16,032 bases of DNA, taken from assembly GCA_040758355.1 (NCBI GenBank), contig JBFLWF010000041.1, positions 1-16,032 of the forward strand, given 5' to 3'. Every line of letters begins with the position of its first letter. Position 1 is the stretch's first letter. Shown here piece after piece: positions 4,642-16,032 of the stretch. The stretch comes from Nitrospirota bacterium (GTDB lineage Bacteria > Nitrospirota > Thermodesulfovibrionia > Thermodesulfovibrionales > Dissulfurispiraceae). The notes below the pieces were generated by a model that was not told the origin of the DNA, did not search any database, and saw only the letters and a program-made list of their open reading frames with translations. Position numbers and translations under genes: made by a program.

Positions 4642-5085
4642 ATGCAGGTTATTCTTAAAGAGAATGTTAAGGATTTAGGCCACATTGGTGATGTGGTGAA
4701 TGTCAAGGACGGACATGCAAGGAATTTTCTGATACCGAAGGGGCTTGCAGTTGAGGCAAACCCTAAGAATATCAAGGCGCTGGAGCACGAAAAGAGAAAG
4801 ATCCATGAGCTTGCAAAAAAGGCAAAGGCATCTGCCGAGGAACTGGCGGCCAGGGTTTCTGGAACATCTGTCACAATAAAGGCCAAGACAGGGGAAGAGG
4901 ATAAGCTATTCGGCTCTGTTACGGCCATTGACATTGCCGATGCACTGAAGAAGGAAGGCATGGACATTGACAAAAAGAAGATCGTACTGGATGAGCCCAT
5001 AAAGAGGCTTGGAAGTTATACGGTTAATGTGAAGATCCATTCTGATGTTACAGCACAGCTCAATGTTCAGGTAGTAAGTGAGTAA
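4642..5085 (+). CDS. rplI: 50S ribosomal protein L9
   Basis: MQVILKENVKDLGHIGDVVNVKDGHARNFLIPKGLA N-terminal signature, KLFGSVT, PIKRLG; 147 aa; adjacent to dnaB. Confidence 0.97.
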   Translation: MQVILKENVKDLGHIGDVVNVKDGHARNFLIPKGLAVEANPKNIKALEHEKRKIHELAKKAKASAEELAARVSGTSVTIKAKTGEEDKLFGSVTAIDIADALKKEGMDIDKKKIVLDEPIKRLGSYTVNVKIHSDVTAQLNVQVVSE

Positions 5086-5186
5086 ATGAGTAAATGGGTA
5101 GAAGAGTAGATGAGTAATTAAGAAAAAGTTAGCAGAAATTAATTGAAATCTCATTAACTCATATACTCATGCACCCATCAACTTCA
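5079..5186. repeat. Inverted array of degenerate 8-bp tandem repeats (TGAGTAAA-type arm followed by complementary arm); predicted long hairpin
   Basis: Left arm: TGAGTAAA TGAGTAAA TGGGTAGA AGAGTAGA TGAGTAAT (5079-5118). Right arm: AAATCTCA TTAACTCA TATACTCA TGCACCCA TCAACTTCA (5146-5186). Confidence 0.85.
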
Positions 5187-9299: not shown

Positions 9300-9329
9300 A
9301 ATGAAAGACTGGAAGGAGGTGAAGGATCA

Positions 9330-9728
9330 ATGGTGAGGATTCCTTTCATGAAAGAGGTTGCATGGTATCTTATCTTTGCGATGTTTATTATAGGTATTGC
9401 CCCGAAGGTTGAGGCAGGTTTTGCTCCGTCAGAGGCAATTGCACTCTCAAAGGTTGACAGGGCTGCTGATTTAGAAAGAATACAGAAGGTGCTCGAGACA
9501 AAGATGATCAGGGAAAGGCTTGAAAAATTAGGCTTTACACAGGATGAGATTAATAGCCGACTTTCTCAGCTCAGCGACCAACAGATACACCAGCTTGCCC
9601 TTCAGCTTGATGACCTGAAGGTAGGAAAGGACGACGCCCTCGGTATTATTATTGCCCTTCTTGTGATAGCGATACTTGTTATAATAATATTGCAGTTGAC
9701 GGGTCATAGGGTTGTAGTGACGAAATAA
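9330..9728 (+). CDS. PA2779-family exported/membrane protein of unknown function
   Basis: N-terminal signal peptide (..PKVEA), helical core with RL..LG....EI..RL..LSD..IHQLA..LD.L.VG, then a C-terminal hydrophobic helix. Lies directly upstream of a C39-like peptidase, the family's usual context. RBS AAGGAGGTG at 9313-9321. Confidence 0.78.
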   Translation: MVRIPFMKEVAWYLIFAMFIIGIAPKVEAGFAPSEAIALSKVDRAADLERIQKVLETKMIRERLEKLGFTQDEINSRLSQLSDQQIHQLALQLDDLKVGKDDALGIIIALLVIAILVIIILQLTGHRVVVTK

Positions 9729-9733
9729 GATTT

Positions 9734-9867
9734 TAGGCTATGGGCGATAGACCGGCAATAGGCTATAGGCGATGGGCAATAGGTAATATTTTTAATTCTT
9801 CCTCCTATCGCCTCTTGCCTCTTGCCTATCGCCTTATGTTTCTTATAGCCTTTTGCCTTTTGCCGGT
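9734..9867. repeat. Inverted array of degenerate 7-bp tandem repeats (TAGGCNA-type arm followed by complementary arm); predicted long hairpin
   Basis: Left arm: TAGGCTA TGGGCGA TAGACCGGCAA TAGGCTA TAGGCGA TGGGCAA TAGGTAA (9734-9786). Right arm: CCTATCG CCTCTTG CCTCTTG CCTATCG (9804-9831) ... TATAGCC TTTTGCC TTTTGCC GGT (9844-9867). Confidence 0.88.
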
Positions 9868-10435
9868 TATATTATTTTTTCTTTGCTCGTGTTCGACTGT
9901 CGATGTTCAGTTCAATTCAAAACCCATACTCATTAATAAAGTTCCATTCTATCCTCAAGACGACTATCAGTGCGGGCCTGCATCCCTTGCAGGGGTTTTG
10001 AATTATTGGGGTGTGAGTGTTACGCCTGATGATGTGGCAAAGGATATATACAGCGCATCTGCAAGGGGAACGCTTAACATTGATATGTTGTTATATGTTA
10101 ACAAAAAAGGCCTCTATGCCCTGCAATATATTGGAAGCTGGGATGACCTTAAAAAAAAGATAAACAATAAATATCCATTGATTGTCCTTGTGGACTACGG
10201 TTTTTCCGTATATCAGGCTAATCATTTTATGGTTGTTGTCGGTTATAATGATGACGGCGTTGTTGTTAATTCGGGCAAGACGGAGCATATGTTTATCGAT
10301 AAGGAGAAATTTCTAAAGGCATGGAAAAGGGCGAATTTCTGGACATTGCTGATAAAAAAGGAGTCAGCAGTAAGAAGTCAGAAGTCAGACTATCAGAAGA
10401 CAGAAGTCAGACTATCAGAGGACAGACAAAGGTAG
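9740..10435 (+). CDS. C39-like cysteine peptidase (PA2778-family peptidase domain), probable lipoprotein
   Basis: VPFYPQDDYQCGPASLA (catalytic Cys), YPLIVLVD, HFMVVVGY (catalytic His), VVNSG. Hydrophobic stretch ending FLCSC resembles a lipobox. Start uncertain (ATG 9740 or ATG 9836). Confidence 0.8.
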   Translation: MGDRPAIGYRRWAIGNIFNSSSYRLLPLAYRLMFLIAFCLLPVILFFLCSCSTVDVQFNSKPILINKVPFYPQDDYQCGPASLAGVLNYWGVSVTPDDVAKDIYSASARGTLNIDMLLYVNKKGLYALQYIGSWDDLKKKINNKYPLIVLVDYGFSVYQANHFMVVVGYNDDGVVVNSGKTEHMFIDKEKFLKAWKRANFWTLLIKKESAVRSQKSDYQKTEVRLSEDRQR

Positions 10436-10932
10436 TCTGTCCTCTATCTCTTGTCTTATGTTTTCTGTTTTCTGTCCTCTGTTTTCTGTCTTCTGGTTGT
10501 TCCCTCCCTCGCATAATTGTCCTCGACGACCCGCTGACCCCTGAAGAGCATATAAACCTCGGCGTTGCATATGAGAAAAAGGGAGACCTTGATAATGCCA
10601 TCGAGGAGTTTAAAAAGGCATCGAAGAAACTCCACGTTGCTTATCTCTATCTGGGCAATGCATATATGCAGAAGGGAGATCCCGATGAGGCAGAGAAATA
10701 TTACAAAAAGGCAATCAAAAAGCAGCCCGACCTTGCCGATGCCTATAACAACCTTGCATGGCTTTATTATAATAAGGCTAAAGGTTCAGGGCTAACGGCT
10801 GAAGATATAAATGAAATTATTAAAGAAGCAGAAAGGCTTGCACTGAAGGCGCTGGAGCTAAGCCCCTCCAACGAAAACTATAAGGATACTCTTAATAAGA
10901 TTAGAGAATTAAAATCTAAAAATGGGCTATAA
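10321..10932 (+). CDS. Tetratricopeptide-repeat (TPR) protein, probable lipoprotein
   Basis: TPR motifs EEHINLGVAYEKKG...AIEEFKKA, AYLYLGNAYMQKG...AEKYYKKAI, AYNNLAWLY. Hydrophobic stretch ends LSSGC (Cys codon 10498-10500). The only in-frame ATG/GTG/TTG before the h-region is at 10321. Confidence 0.8.
   Translation: MEKGEFLDIADKKGVSSKKSEVRLSEDRSQTIRGQTKVVCPLSLVLCFLFSVLCFLSSGCSLPRIIVLDDPLTPEEHINLGVAYEKKGDLDNAIEEFKKASKKLHVAYLYLGNAYMQKGDPDEAEKYYKKAIKKQPDLADAYNNLAWLYYNKAKGSGLTAEDINEIIKEAERLALKALELSPSNENYKDTLNKIRELKSKNGL
10361..10495. repeat. Inverted array of degenerate 7-bp tandem repeats (AAG(T/A)CAG-type arm followed by CTGTYYT-type arm) with a perfect central stem
   Basis: Left arm: GAGTCAG CAGTAAG AAGTCAG AAGTCAG ACTATCAG AAGACAG AAGTCAG ACTATCAG AGGACAG (10361-10425). 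Right arm: CTGTCCT CTATCTC TTGTCTT ATGTTTT CTGTTTT CTGTCCT CTGTTTT CTGTCTT CTG (10437-10495). Perfect 11-bp stem AGAGGACAGAC(10417-10427)/GTCTGTCCTCT(10435-10445). Confidence 0.9.
10774..10801 (+). repeat. Short degenerate heptamer run inside the TPR gene
   Basis: AAGGCTA AAGGTTC AGGGCTA ACGGCTG; no inverted arm visible. Confidence 0.45.
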
Positions 10933-10967
10933 TGTTTTACTTATTATTTTTTTAAGGAGGATTTTTT

Positions 10968-12158
10968 ATGCTTGCTGAAAGGGTGAAAAAGATTAAGCCT
11001 TCACCGACCCTTGCCATGGATGCAAAGGCAAAGGCCCTGAAGGCACAGGGTTTGGACATTGTGAATTTCGGTGTTGGAGAGCCTGATTTCGACACCCCTG
11101 AACATGTGAAAGAGGCTGCAATAAAGGCTATCAAGGACGGCTTTACAAAATATACTCCTGTGGGAGGAATAGACGAGCTTAAGGATGCCATTGTCGAGAA
11201 GTTCAAGAAGGATAACGACCTTGAATATACAAAAGAGGAGATAATCGTCTCCTGCGGTGCAAAGCACAGCCTTTATAACATTGCTCAGGCTTTATATGGC
11301 CCGGGCGACGAGGTGATAATTCCCTCTCCATACTGGGTATCTTATCCGGATCAGGTACTGCTTAATGACGCGACTCCTGTGTTTGTAAAAACTTATGAAG
11401 AAGACAGTTTTATGTTAAGGCCCGATGCCCTTGAATCAAAGATAACAAAAAAGACAAAGGCAATAATACTCAATTCCCCATCCAATCCTACAGGACTTAC
11501 TTACGATAAAAAGACCCTTGAGGCTATTGCCGAAATAGCCCTTAAACATGATGTCTACATAATCTCGGACGAGATATACGAAAAGCTGGTTTATGACGGC
11601 ACCGAGTTTATCAGCATCGCCTCGCTGAGCAAAGAGGTAAAGGATAAGACGATTGTTGTCAACGGGCTCTCAAAATCCCATGCCATGACAGGATGGAGGA
11701 TCGGCTATGCAGCAGGGCCGAAGGATATTATAAAGGCCATGACAAATATCCAGAGCCAGTCCACATCCAATCCCACATCCATTGCCCAGAAGGCTGCGGT
11801 GGCTGCATTAACAGGGCCACAGGATTTCATATCAGTAATGCATTCGGAATTCGACAAGAGGAGAAAATTTCTTGTTGAGGGACTTAATTCCATAGAAGGA
11901 GTGAGATGTCTGAAGCCCACAGGAGCATTTTATGCCTTCCCAAATGTTTCAAAGCTCTACGGCAAAAAAACAGGTACAAGGCAGATAAATTCTTCCCTCG
12001 ATATGGCGATGTATCTGCTTGAGGATGCAAATGTGGCTCTGGTGCATGGAGAGGCATTCGGAGATGACAACTATATCAGGATTTCATATGCCACATCCAT
12101 GGAGAATATAAAAAAGGGGTTGGATAGAATAAAAGAAGCGCTGGCAAATCTAAAATAG
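10968..12158 (+). CDS. aspC: PLP-dependent class I/II aminotransferase (aspartate aminotransferase-like)
   Basis: GVGEPDFDTP, TKYTPVGG, GAKHSL, PYWVSY, NSPSNPTG, SDEIYEK, NGLSKSHAMTGWRIG (PLP lysine), GAFYAF, IRISYA. RBS AAGGAGG at 10954-10960. Confidence 0.92.
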   Translation: MLAERVKKIKPSPTLAMDAKAKALKAQGLDIVNFGVGEPDFDTPEHVKEAAIKAIKDGFTKYTPVGGIDELKDAIVEKFKKDNDLEYTKEEIIVSCGAKHSLYNIAQALYGPGDEVIIPSPYWVSYPDQVLLNDATPVFVKTYEEDSFMLRPDALESKITKKTKAIILNSPSNPTGLTYDKKTLEAIAEIALKHDVYIISDEIYEKLVYDGTEFISIASLSKEVKDKTIVVNGLSKSHAMTGWRIGYAAGPKDIIKAMTNIQSQSTSNPTSIAQKAAVAALTGPQDFISVMHSEFDKRRKFLVEGLNSIEGVRCLKPTGAFYAFPNVSKLYGKKTGTRQINSSLDMAMYLLEDANVALVHGEAFGDDNYIRISYATSMENIKKGLDRIKEALANLK

Positions 12159-12225: not shown

Positions 12226-13449
12226 ATGATGACAAATCAGCCAATTTTTGAAAGAATCGTATTAACGGAAATCAAAAAATACCTGAATACGGATGACATA
12301 ATTGTCCTGCATGGAGCGCGACAGGTCGGCAAGACATCCATCCTGTATTATCTTGAAGCAGAACTAATCAGGCAGGGAGAGGAAACTTACTTCATCGACC
12401 TCGAAGATTCCAGATTTGTGAATATCCTTGATTCCGGCGTAGGGGAATTCCTCAAACATCTTGAGGAAGAGGGAAAATCGCCTGAACAAAAAAAGAAACT
12501 CTATGTATTTATAGATGAAATCCAGTATCTTGCAAATCCTTCGTCTTTTCTGAAGCTCGTTGCAGATCATCACAAAAACATCAAACTCATCGTCTCCGGC
12601 TCATCGAGTTTTGCCATAAAGACCAAGTTTAAGGATTCGCTCGCAGGCAGGACTGTAAATTTTGAGATATTCAATCTCTCATTTAATGAGTTTTTGCGGT
12701 TCAGAAAATATCACTTTGAGGAGGGGAAGGCATACTCTGCAAAAAAGATTGATGAGCTTAGGAGTTTATTTAAGGAATATGTCTTGTATGGTGGATACCC
12801 AAAAATTGTTCTTACGCCCGAACTCAGAATGAAGGAAAAATACCTGCAGCAGATTATAGACACCTATGTAAAAAAAGATATCAGGGATTTGGCCGATGTC
12901 AAAGACATAGACAAATTCAATAAACTCCTTGAATCCCTTGCCTCGCAGAGCGGACAGCAATTGAACGTAACGGACCTCTCCAATACAACGAGGATAGCGA
13001 AGCAGACAATAGAGAAGTATCTCTTTATAATGGAGAACACTTATATAATAAAGTTGGTAAGGCCGTTCAGCCGCAATATACGCTCTGAGCTTTTCAAGCT
13101 GCCGAAGATATATTTTTATGACACAGGGCTTATGCAGATGCTCTGGCTGAAGGGGCTGCAGAAAGAGATTATCGGCAATGTGTTTGAAACCGGGATTTTT
13201 GCAGAACTGATAAAAAAATACGATAGAGAATCCGTTTTTTACTGGCGGACAAAGGACAAAAAAGAGATAGATTTCATACTTAAAATAAAAAACAACATTC
13301 TGCCTATTGAGGTAAAGCTCAACTTTGAGCAGTTTAATCCATCGGCAATACAATATTTCAACAGCCATTACGGCGTTGATAAATACAAAGTGGTCGGCTT
13401 AAAAGGCGAACCTAAGAGCAAGTTCTATGTTTACCCGTGGGATGTATAG
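12226..13449 (+). CDS. AAA+ ATPase (AAA_14-type) with C-terminal DUF4143 / PD-(D/E)xK-like domain
   Basis: Walker A GARQVGKT, Walker B VFIDEIQY, IVSGSS, SLAGR, YGGYP, KIYFYDTGL, GNVFE, FYWRTKDKKEIDF...IEVK. Confidence 0.88.
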   Translation: MMTNQPIFERIVLTEIKKYLNTDDIIVLHGARQVGKTSILYYLEAELIRQGEETYFIDLEDSRFVNILDSGVGEFLKHLEEEGKSPEQKKKLYVFIDEIQYLANPSSFLKLVADHHKNIKLIVSGSSSFAIKTKFKDSLAGRTVNFEIFNLSFNEFLRFRKYHFEEGKAYSAKKIDELRSLFKEYVLYGGYPKIVLTPELRMKEKYLQQIIDTYVKKDIRDLADVKDIDKFNKLLESLASQSGQQLNVTDLSNTTRIAKQTIEKYLFIMENTYIIKLVRPFSRNIRSELFKLPKIYFYDTGLMQMLWLKGLQKEIIGNVFETGIFAELIKKYDRESVFYWRTKDKKEIDFILKIKNNILPIEVKLNFEQFNPSAIQYFNSHYGVDKYKVVGLKGEPKSKFYVYPWDV

Positions 13450-13452
13450 ATA

Positions 13453-15910
13453 ATGGAAAACATACATGATATGCATAAAACACAGCCGAATTTGTTTAAG
13501 GATGTCTGGACAACATCGGGCATCTTTTCAAGCCATTATCTCTTAGAACGCCTGCCGCAAGCAGGGCCAAAAATATGGCCTTCTGACGAAGAAGTACTCT
13601 CTGCATATAAAGCTATTCAAGAATTATATAAGAAGAATATAGTCGGCTTGAGAAAAGGAAACGAAGCCAACACCGAAAGAAGATTTATTGACAAAGTTTT
13701 TAATGAATTAGGGTTTGGTTATCTTAATCAGGATAAAATCCCGGAAGCAGAGCGCAGACAAGTGCCGGATTATTTTCTCTATTCTACGCCAGAAGAAGCC
13801 GGCAAAGCTTTTGAACTGTCCCCACATAAGAAATACAAGCTCTCAATCTCAATCGCAGAAGCGAAACGATGGGATCATAACTTAGACCAGCCATCTTCCG
13901 GCAAAGGAAAGGCTCCCGGAGGCAGGTATCCTCATCAGCAGATAAGGGATTATCTGAATGAATCAGAACATATTAAATGGGGAATTCTGACTAATGGCAA
14001 AGAGTGGAGACTTTATTTCAAGGAAGGTCGTTCAAGCAAATTCTTTGAGATAGACCTTGAGGCGTGTCTTGAAGACCTACAGAAGTTCAGGTATTTCTAT
14101 GTTCTTTTCAGGCCTGATGCCTTTATAAAAGACAGTTCTAACAGATGTCTGCTTGATAATATTTTTGACGAATCTCTGAGATTTCAGGAAAATGTAGAAA
14201 AAGACCTCAGAGAGAGAGTCTTTAAATGCGTTGAATGGCTTGGACATGGCTTTTTATCCAGAGAAGAAAACCATTTATCAGAAAAAGACCTTGACTCTAT
14301 ATACCACCACAGTCTGATTCTTTTATATAGGATACTTTTTGTGCTTAATGCAGAGGCGAGAGACCTTCTTCCAACAAATCCTCAGACAAAATATTACAAA
14401 CATTACGGCATCCAGAGAATAAAAGATAGGGTCGGACACGAAAAGGGAGAATTCATAAGCGCTAAAACAGTTTTATATGATGAACTTTCAGCCCTCTTTC
14501 ATTTGATCAACGGAAGCGATGAAAAGCTCAACAGGGATATGAACATACCGAGATACAATGGCGGTCTTTTTGATCCTGAAAGATATAAGTTCCTTGAAGA
14601 AAAGAAGGTCGGAGATGATGTTCTTTCGGAAATAATTTATGAACTCTCCAACCGCACTGATAAAAACGGTGATATTCACAGCATTGATTACAAAGGGCTC
14701 GGTGAGAGACATCTTGGAACTGTTTATGAAGGACTGCTTGAGCATAGGTTTAGTTTCGATAAAGGCAAAGTGGTTCTTAAAAACGACAAGGGCGAACGGA
14801 AAGCAACAGGGGCATATTATACGCCTGACTATATTGTGAAATATATTGTTGAAAACACATTAACGCCGATACTCAAAGAGATAGACGAAAGGATTAAAAA
14901 AGAAAACAAAGGCATTAAAGATAATTTTTTTGCAAAAGAAGTTCTCCAACTCAACATCTGCGACCCTGCGATGGGTTCAGGCCATTTTCTTGTCGAGGCA
15001 GTTCAATATCTTGCGGATGAGATTGCTTACCATCCAACAACAGAGATAAAGACACCAAAAGGCGAAACAGAGGACGAGATTAATTACTGGAAGCGCAAGG
15101 TTGTAGAGTCCTGCATTTACGGTGTTGACATAAAAGAACTTGCAGTTGAACTTGCAAAGCTCTCCTTATGGCTTAAGACTGTTGATAAAAGCCAGCCGCT
15201 TAATTTTTTAGACCATCATCTGAGATGCGGCAACTCACTCATCGGCGCAAGGATAGCCGACCTGAATTATCTGCCTCAGTCAAAAGGAAAACAGAAAAAG
15301 ACAGAGGAACAGGACAGCCAGCTTGTGCTTTTTGATAAATCCCGCTTTAAAGAAGACATTACAACAGTAATAAAAGGCTTCCACTCGATAGAGGAAATGC
15401 CGAGCGAAAAGCTTTCGGACATAAAGGCAAAAGAAAAGACATTCAAAACATTGACTGAGGAACTGGATAGATACAGAGAAATTGCAAATCTCTGGACAAG
15501 TTTATTTTTTGGAAATAATCTTGAAGAAAAAGAGCAGGTATTTGAAGAACTCCTGAAAGACCAGTTCAGGTATCAGATGGACATCTTCGGTTCAGAGACC
15601 GAGGTTGCTGTAAAAAAGAAATCAAATGCAGGCATATCAAATCAGATTTACAGTTTTATTGTAAACTCGCTGCAAAGTCCAGACGGCAAGATGCAACTGC
15701 CAAAACTCGCATCATTGCTTGAGAAATCAGAAGCTATTTCCAAAGACAAGAATTTCTTTCACTGGGAACTTGAATTCCCAGAAGTATTTTTCAATGAAGA
15801 CGGAAGCCCGAAAGAGAATTCAGGATTTAATTGCGTGATTGGGAATCCGCCGTATGATGTTTTGTCAGAACTTGAACAGGGACGAGAGACGCAGCACGAA
15901 AAAGAATTTT
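13453..15910 (+). pseudogene. Type IIG (Eco57I-like) fused restriction endonuclease / N6-adenine methyltransferase, interrupted by an ISL3 insertion (5' portion; ORF reads into the IS and stops at 15924)
   Basis: N-terminal PD-(D/E)xK domain (VPDY...IAEAK, WGILTNGKEWRLY), YNGGLF, LGTVYEGLL, motif X RKATGAYYTP, motif I ICDPAMGSGHFL, IYGVD, FHWELEFPEVF, motif IV VIGNPPY (NPPY at 15844-15855). Later motifs and the target-recognition domain are absent; the final residues WLFV* derive from the IS end. Confidence 0.85.
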
Positions 15911-16032
15911 GGCTCTTCGTGTAATCGAGTGGGTCATTTTATATCTCCTTGAGCATACATGTAAGTATTTTCAGGCGCAGATACTCCTCGTCTCTGAGAC
16001 CGTAAGCCCTTCTCTGTATAACACGAATTTTG
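15911..16032 (-). mobile_element. Right end of an ISL3-family insertion sequence (continues beyond the window)
   Basis: Begins GGCTCTTCG at 15911, the GGCTCT terminus typical of ISL3, directly after an AT-rich target (AGAATTTT). The ISL3 transposase C-terminus lies on the minus strand and stops 28 nt inside the end. Confidence 0.88.
15939..16032 (-). CDS. ISL3-family transposase, C-terminal 30 aa (partial)
   Basis: Manual translation of the minus strand from 16031 gives KIRVIQRRAYGLRDEEYLRLKILTCMLKEI*, matching the ISL3 C-terminal signature (N)KI+vi+RrAYG.r..ey..LKI. Not in the ORF track. Confidence 0.88.
   Translation of the reverse strand, partial: KIRVIQRRAYGLRDEEYLRLKILTCMLKEI

Follow-up and report, generated by a model that had tools for sequence, protein, structure and literature searches.

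Introduction

In the opa genes of Neisseria, CTCTT coding repeats lie in the leader-peptide region (PMC3960869). The locus described here shares with opa a pyrimidine-rich simple repeat in leader-peptide coding DNA, with a unit that is not a multiple of three. As far as the available text of PMC3960869 goes, opa carries a single perfect pentamer tract, whose frameshifts switch a dispensable adhesin family; in contrast, the genome studied here carries degenerate heptamers of many unit types, often with a complementary arm, in frame in essential envelope genes. No perfect frame-switching tract of the opa type is seen at this locus, where array matches are 83–86% and the frame is kept in 51 of 60 orthologues, the rest having their own starts.

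The Rickettsia RPE and the Yersinia YPAL and RU-2 sequences are MITEs or palindromic elements fused in frame (PMC2229807). Like the hairpin of this study, RPE and YPAL are stem-loop elements of 100–170 nt that are read in frame inside conserved genes, and the predicted signal of YPO1552 is partly formed by such an element. However, RPE and YPAL are presented in the available text of PMC2229807 as single conserved families, not tandem heptamers, whereas several unit families appear here to have replaced the signals of dozens of conserved genes. Heptameric simple-sequence repeats are known from Xanthomonas, Nostoc and Beggiatoaceae (PMC4692102, PMC4679880). These too form genome-wide arrays near gene ends, often as convergent stem-loop pairs, with rare coding copies at protein peripheries. 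They are reported, in the text available for both papers, to be mainly intergenic and under-represented in coding regions, and the term "signal peptide" occurs 0 times in the main text of either; in the source genome of our locus, by contrast, open frames hold 247 of the 312 arrays, with 172 in gene interiors and 75 at 5′ ends.

Borg tandem repeats evolve fast, are coding and are enriched in proteins with signal peptides but, as characterized in the available text of PMC9879509, their units are perfect and divisible by three, and they encode disordered mature regions, not the signal itself. In Enterobacterales, signals are gained and lost by wholesale insertion or deletion or by point changes (PMC5952966); the available text of that study gives no repeat-based route (the word "repeat" occurs 0 times) and reports no transposable elements near N-termini. 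Repeats are generally tolerated at protein termini (PMC3315296), and PARCEL, judged from the available text of PMC2996958, is not close to the present arrays. The literature covered, in which subscription papers were thinly represented and supplements lay outside the scope, yielded only partial precedents and no description of heptamer arrays as signal-peptide coding DNA.

Results

A repeat hairpin spans most of a predicted leader

The window (the whole 16,032-nt stretch of DNA that was analysed) is contig C41 of a 2.77-Mb genome in 93 contigs (label G000). The locus is a three-gene unit, or operon, encoding a PA2779-family protein, a C39 peptidase and a TPR protein, with the following features.

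9330..9728, + strand: PA2779-family gene, first in the three-gene unit (NF033919, E 4.9e-23, above cut-off; DUF6627)
9740..10435, + strand: C39 peptidase-like predicted lipoprotein gene (Peptidase_C39_2, E 2.9e-19; NF033920 positions 2-154 of 255, 123 bits, below the 150 cut-off)
9741..9864, + strand: second purine-then-pyrimidine heptamer hairpin, of a different unit, in the leader of the C39 gene (TRF arrays 9754-9788, 9804-9834 and 9848-9864; z −4.29)
10301..10306, + strand: SD-like AAGGAG, weak and with long spacing, 14 nt upstream of the ATG (from sequence; absent from most distant orthologues)
10321..10932, + strand: TPR gene, whole ORF; mature part 10501..10932 (TPR_1/TPR_2, E about 2e-19; NF033920 positions 160-238, E 7e-9)
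10321..10359, + strand: start codon and first 13 residues of the TPR leader, ancestral and free of repeats, overprinted on the conserved C39 end in its +1 frame (only canonical start before Cys60; ATG-making codon kept)
10362..10427, + strand: purine-rich arm of 7- and 8-nt units with a 22-nt higher period, an extended polar n-region in the TPR frame (TRF, translation)
10417..10445, + strand: perfect 11-bp apical stem with a 7-nt loop, the C39 stop codon (10433-10435) lying at the loop/3′ side (folding; terminator-like by consensus scan only)
10435..10497, + strand: pyrimidine-rich heptamer arm, predicted h-region and lipobox residues (TRF, translation; period-7 score 16, shuffle p 0.005)
10498..10500, + strand: Cys60, predicted lipidation site (S-S-G-C; Cys conserved in 60/60 orthologues)

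The C39 gene corresponds to the N-terminal part of the PA2778 family model and the TPR gene to its C-terminal part. Neither is above the cut-off for this cysteine peptidase family (NF033920), the match being split between two genes (123 bits and 35 bits against 150). The TPR start, ATG 10321, sits within the C39 gene, and the DNA for this start and the first 13 residues (window 10319–10359) also encodes the conserved C39 end, the TPR reading being overprinted in the +1 frame. Because the C39 and TPR parts are one in the PA2778 model, the ancestral signal itself may have arisen by overprinting when a fused C39/TPR gene split. The nearest relatives of the TPR protein are titled Nitrospirota or Thermodesulfovibrionales, and more distant ones come from Syntrophorhabdus and other deltaproteobacteria. 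A contig from a possible source sequencing run, which is not independent evidence, covers 9300–11000 with zero differences.

The segment 10355–10502 folds with −58.4 kcal/mol (z −6.82), a value reached by 0 of 200 dinucleotide shuffles. Pairing covers 10366–10501 and joins a purine arm to the pyrimidine arm that follows it, both built of heptamer repeats. Period-7 arrays were found by TRF at 10362–10411 and 10459–10495, the latter stopping 2 nt short of the Cys60 codon, along with a period of 22 at 10373–10426; matches within the arrays are only 83–86%, i.e. the repeats are imperfect. In the TPR frame, the hairpin corresponds to residues 15–58 of a 59-residue leader that ends at the lipobox-like Cys60, and the two arms with the DNA between them account for 44 of the 59 residues. 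Read from ATG 10321, positions 10363–10425 encode VSSKKSEVRLSEDRSQTIRGQ and positions 10438–10494 encode CPLSLVLCFLFSVLCFLSS, followed by Gly (10495–10497) and Cys60 (10498–10500). The leader opens with 13 non-repeat residues; the purine arm then contributes about 25 polar ones, and the pyrimidine arm 21 uncharged ones that run into S-S-G-C. The coding of the two arms had been described in a first-pass annotation of the sequence, which had the purine arm encode a polar, charged stretch and the pyrimidine arm a hydrophobic region ending 2 nt before the Cys codon, and its peptides and coordinates are exact; the non-repeat residues, the reading of the purine arm in the C39 frame and the hairpin in the C39 leader are additions to it. 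In the C39 frame, the purine arm forms a 24-residue C-terminal extension of C39 (10361–10432). No Rfam family came near its gathering score (six matches at E up to 1, the best with 26 bits against gathering scores of 64–100), and the matches for the hairpin region are chance-level hits to miRNA precursors and aspC only. A promoter scan was uninformative (7 sites against 4.2 ± 2.1 in shuffles).

The leader is predicted to be translated as a lipoprotein signal

The only ATG, GTG or TTG between the upstream in-frame stop and Cys60 is ATG 10321, and the next canonical start is codon 115, inside the TPR domain. For comparison, 95 orthologous loci were fetched and 60 were retained after identity and coverage filters; the set excludes 13 duplicates, 5 loci in which the C39 end motif is missing, one locus with a spurious motif (L048) and loci with <43% identity or unmatched from the start. 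All counts over these orthologues treat related loci as separate, kin not being independent. The overlapped start lies 72–234 nt from the Cys. It is in frame with the Cys in 51/60 orthologues, the intervening frame is open in 50/60, and the codon is ATG, GTG or TTG in 47/60; the nine out-of-frame loci and one with a stop each have a later start of their own. Among distinct start-to-Cys lengths, 24 are in frame and 9 are not (binomial p 4e-6 against one third). In 46/60 orthologues, against 17.4 expected from local synonymous usage, the C39 codon before Trp has A as its third base and thereby creates the ATG; this holds for 42/50 open loci versus 4/10 others. By these counts, ATG 10321 looks selected. 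Many long alleles also contain internal starts. The view put forward at first pass, that translation runs through the whole hairpin from 10321, is supported, this being the only canonical start before Cys60 and both frame and ATG being kept in orthologues.

A Cys occurs within 3 codons of the aligned place in every one of the 60 orthologues, with S, G or A at −1 in 58, and none has a charged residue in the 12 positions before it. The comparison of orthologous N-termini that had been proposed as a check has thus been run, and Cys and uncharged stretch are kept at the aligned place throughout. In the window, the predicted h-region consists of about 21 uncharged residues (38–59) with a best 10-residue hydropathy of 3.1, and the Cys stands at +1 after a lipobox-like S-S-G, as expected for a Sec/SPII signal. 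The strict lipobox consensus is [LVI][ASTVI][GAS]C. The window leader departs from it with Ser at −3; as just 33/60 orthologues match it, the family as a whole does not hold to the strict pattern. The n-region is 39 residues long with a net charge of +2 (9 K/R and 7 D/E in residues 1–39). Points against the leader as a signal are its length of 59 residues, the Ser at −3 and the distance of 14 nt to the SD-like site. The leader also scores as non-coding in a dicodon model, in which the core begins at 10510. On the features kept among orthologues, the leader is in all likelihood a translated lipoprotein signal peptide, with export of the protein predicted.

Repeat arrays probably replaced an older signal

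Plain signals of 24–28 residues begin at the same start in 21/60 orthologues, and all of these have period-7 scores of ≤7. An h-region score of ≥8 is found in 14/60, with units that differ between genomes. In a midpoint-rooted FastTree phylogeny of C39 plus TPR for 57 loci (the short pieces L004, L026 and L043 being excluded), which has several weak nodes, the plain-signal loci make up the whole of one side of the root and some of the basal branches on the other, and all 14 leaders with a score of ≥8 fall in one clade with local support of 0.92. The occurrence of plain short signals on the same start, with the array-bearing leaders nested among them, argues that the signal predates the arrays. 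Relative to four same-genus relatives, the flanks in the window are 78–95% identical and the leaders only 51–60%, and BLAST found no match of the window leader to the leaders of L002 or L003. Relatives at this locus have replaced, not empty, sites, and some leader types are common to distant branches (L002, L004 and L009; L001, L006 and L016). Since the signal is older, and since in close relatives its place is taken, in the same frame, by repeats unrelated to those of the window, repeat DNA would rewrite, not create, such signals. By this comparison, an old signal is replaced and lengthened by arrays and is not created by them. Of the earlier suggestion that these elements create or replace secretion signals, the second half fits the divergence of leaders relative to flanks, and the 21 plain signals and the nesting of arrays in one clade speak against the first.

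Length change by steps of three whole units alone was rejected, the lengths occupying all seven classes modulo 21. The hairpin in the C39 leader (window 9741–9864) encodes a near-identical peptide in L002 and L003, next to a TPR leader that is wholly different, so that turnover seems to be episodic and locus-specific.

Three further genes with arrays, BamD and two whose family does not tell their location (HEAT and M16), were checked among relatives, and no case of signal gain was found in them: loci scoring <8 number 12/14 for HEAT, 12/20 for M16 and 22/25 for BamD, and the array-free relatives have hydrophobic leaders by eye.

Heptamer arrays are enriched in signal-peptide coding regions

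The source genome has 312 period-7 arrays versus 3 in a locally shuffled genome, an evident heptameric excess. Other periods give 2–43 arrays (periods 4–6 and 9–12), with 133 for period 8. Genes were called with our own dicodon gene caller (2534 genes), so that gene calls and signal classes are heuristic. By these calls, the 312 arrays comprise 172 inside genes, 75 in the open 5′ frames of 59 genes, 34 upstream and out of frame, 18 across stops and 13 elsewhere. A mainly intergenic distribution is not what is found, since 247 lie in open frames of called genes. The 172 interior arrays are in-frame inserts in 138 genes and are scarcer in the outermost tenth of the ORF at either end.

Of the 59 genes with a 5′ array, 57 were searched against Pfam together, and the two window genes separately. 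The 41 genes with a pyrimidine-rich 5′ array include 21 of clear envelope families, 6 membrane, 9 unassigned and 5 cytoplasmic. The envelope families are BamA, BamD, LptA, LptD, LptE, TolB, SurA, two TolC, two secretins, FlgH, FlgI, RlpA, ApbE, NosL, DacA, SpoIID, TlpA, SLT and FecR; the label "exported" is one that we presume from general knowledge of the Pfam families. Only 1/16 genes with other 5′ arrays is exported. The controls, 80 genes sampled out of 418 neighbours, include 4 with clear or probable export. The control Pfam cut-off was 1e-8 against 1e-6 for the array genes, and all 21 envelope-family array genes also pass the former. The difference between 21/41 and 4/80 is significant (Fisher p 8e-9) and remains so in the worst case, in which 14 unassigned controls are counted as exported and the window genes as misses (21/43 vs 18/80, p 0.004). 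The genome-wide enrichment of arrays in signal-peptide coding regions that the first-pass annotation had put up for testing is therefore found, and it indicates that the window leader belongs to a real, genome-wide pattern.

Counted in 66-nt windows, period-7 repeats occur in 31/218 signal-like N-termini (9/38 of those with a lipobox), 3/1297 internal membrane segments, 35/1436 regions upstream of non-hydrophobic genes, 53/3981 intergenic windows, 103/2521 post-stop windows and 211/27196 interior coding windows; this comparison is partly circular, since the class of 218 genes is defined by hydrophobicity, which the arrays partly supply. Most signal-like N-termini are ordinary (187/218). Lipoprotein candidates have bimodal period-7 scores, 9/38 scoring ≥13 and the other 29 scoring ≤4. 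In many exported genes with arrays, only a few bases separate the start from the upstream stop.

Hairpin polarity and copying between loci

Complementary partners accompany the 175 skewed arrays at 29 loci, versus 7 in the control. The purine arm precedes the pyrimidine arm at 27 of the 29 hairpin loci, and at 15/17 of those outside 5′ frames. Hairpins that are purine-then-pyrimidine on either strand would therefore be read as polar-then-hydrophobic on either strand. The first-pass annotation had argued that a purine arm followed by its complement naturally yields an n-region plus an h-region. The polarity argument holds, because 27/29 hairpin loci have this order and because pyrimidine-rich heptamers, read in reverse complement, give polar peptides with a net positive charge. 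The word "naturally" overstates the case: mean hydropathy exceeds 1.5 in only 22–30% of stop-free heptamers with 5–7 pyrimidines, and several common heptamer units have stops in their reverse complement. We infer that the genetic code supplies a bias and selection the rest.

Modules that resemble the window hairpin occur in the leaders of TolB, AmiC, RlpA and FlgI and in a ComEC loop (same-genus genomes); the TolB and RlpA modules are inverted. Look-alikes at other loci are 71–77% identical over 100–130 nt, a similarity inflated by low complexity. Since low-complexity similarity of arrays inflates BLAST E-values, only non-repeat cores argue for copying. One such core of 18 nt lies between heptamer units of different types at five unrelated loci of the source genome, always in the same frame, and also in the orthologue of the window leader in genome G001; it is present in 3/61 genomes, with 0 hits for the reversed control.

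18-nt core sites: source genome C7:14126, C7:24193, C8:20369, C16:42944 and C32:7411; G001 C6:44132; G023 C14:127574

Its host genes in the source genome include those for LeuRS and a menaquinone-biosynthesis gene. The core looks like a very small, recently spread element, and we infer copying between arrays in addition to slippage. At its five loci it resembles the small dispersed repeats of Nostoc, which Elhai et al. in 2008 reportedly described as very short dispersed inserts associated with heptamer arrays. The Nostoc repeats are not known to be linked to signal peptides.

Discussion

We propose, with a probability of roughly 0.7, that an old lipoprotein signal was overwritten by a member of the lineage's heptamer-repeat families. 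Comparison of orthologues indicates that the start codon of the TPR gene, an ATG, is overprinted on the C39 end and that distant relatives have a short ordinary signal from the same ATG. In one clade of Thermodesulfovibrionales-like Nitrospirota, the stretch from ATG to Cys has evidently been replaced repeatedly by unrelated repeat modules, and frame, absence of stops, uncharged hydrophobic stretch and Cys have evidently been kept through these replacements. Many essential envelope genes of the source genome, to judge from their arrays, behave alike. Repeat modules would reach gene junctions by slippage and by copying between arrays (ectopic conversion). Purine-then-pyrimidine modules would be read as polar-then-hydrophobic, and purifying selection would retain those that leave a working Sec/SPII signal. 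As the leader would be cleaved off, the mature protein would be unchanged, and the RNA hairpin would be a by-product of the module, not a requirement.

An unlikely extension of this proposal is that the arrays are interchangeable signal-peptide cassettes: heptamer modules copied in either orientation, favoured about 10-fold over intergenic DNA by targeting or positive selection, that adjust how essential envelope proteins are exported or expressed and occasionally provide a signal to a protein that lacked one. A difficulty for the main proposal is that pure tolerance offers no obvious account of the approximately 10-fold excess of arrays in signal-like over intergenic windows.

It is improbable, too, that the hairpin is kept for a role at the RNA level (attenuation, termination, RNase III cleavage or stabilization at the C39/TPR junction), with the coding acting as a constraint. 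The fold is strong (z −6.82), the terminator-like apical stem at 10417–10445 holds the C39 stop, 27/29 hairpins share one polarity, and bacterial repeat hairpins with RNA roles are described in the available text of PMC2229807. Hairpins with z ≤−3 in 11/60 orthologues differ in sequence, which selection on RNA structure could also yield; 49/60, including the same-genus L001 (z −0.5), lack a strong one, the C39 stop shifts relative to the hairpin among orthologues, and the T tail is weak, with no Rfam family near its gathering score. The hairpin as a requirement was rejected, as z ≤−3 is reached by only 5/14 array-bearing orthologues and 13/43 array-bearing genes genome-wide (doublet shuffles).

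Distinctly improbable is a tunable or switchable cassette of the opa kind, in which signal-peptide arrays are positively selected or targeted for their effect on export rate or expression. The frequency of arrays in signal-like windows (14% against 1.3% of intergenic ones), the very fast turnover of leaders and the modules common to distant branches and to unrelated leaders would all fit. However, the arrays are degenerate where perfect tracts would be expected, leader lengths change by steps other than whole units, and arrays are also common inside cytoplasmic enzymes (172/312); T-rich h-region codons could simply be better seeds. The arrays also sit in essential genes such as BamA, BamD and LptA/D/E, whose on/off switching would be lethal.

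That signal peptides arise de novo from repeat hairpins, at this locus or others of the genome, as the first-pass annotation had envisaged, is very improbable. The share of the leader taken up by the hairpin (44 of 59 residues), the polarity and the code bias favour it, as does the predicted MITE-formed signal of YPO1552 in the available text of PMC2229807, but 21/60 orthologues have array-free signals, the 21 clearly assigned array genes belong to canonical, anciently exported families, and array-free relatives of HEAT, M16 and BamD have hydrophobic leaders too. It is equally hard to credit that the leader is untranslated junction DNA and that the TPR protein starts later or is cytoplasmic, since, against a non-coding dicodon score, a weak SD-like site and a long n-region, the next canonical start lies inside the TPR domain and frame, ATG, Cys and hydrophobic stretch are conserved.

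If the signal was overwritten as we propose, natural populations would swap whole signals for repeat DNA between genomes with flanks that are about 90% identical, in a part of the protein already known to be loosely constrained, and the signals replaced would include those of BamA, BamD, LptA/D/E, TolB and SurA. Array-bearing leaders score as non-coding, so starts get miscalled, which is a warning to annotators.

Other features of the window

A purine-rich period-8 array lies at window 5073–5117 across the stop of a ribosomal protein gene, which we take to be L9-like, and does not form a hairpin (z −0.79). In the counts by 66-nt windows, signal-like regions have period-8 arrays less often than do post-stop and intergenic stretches. 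Downstream of the three-gene unit, window 12226–15924 holds an AAA_14/DUF4143 ATPase gene followed by a long ORF that by eye resembles a restriction-modification methyltransferase.
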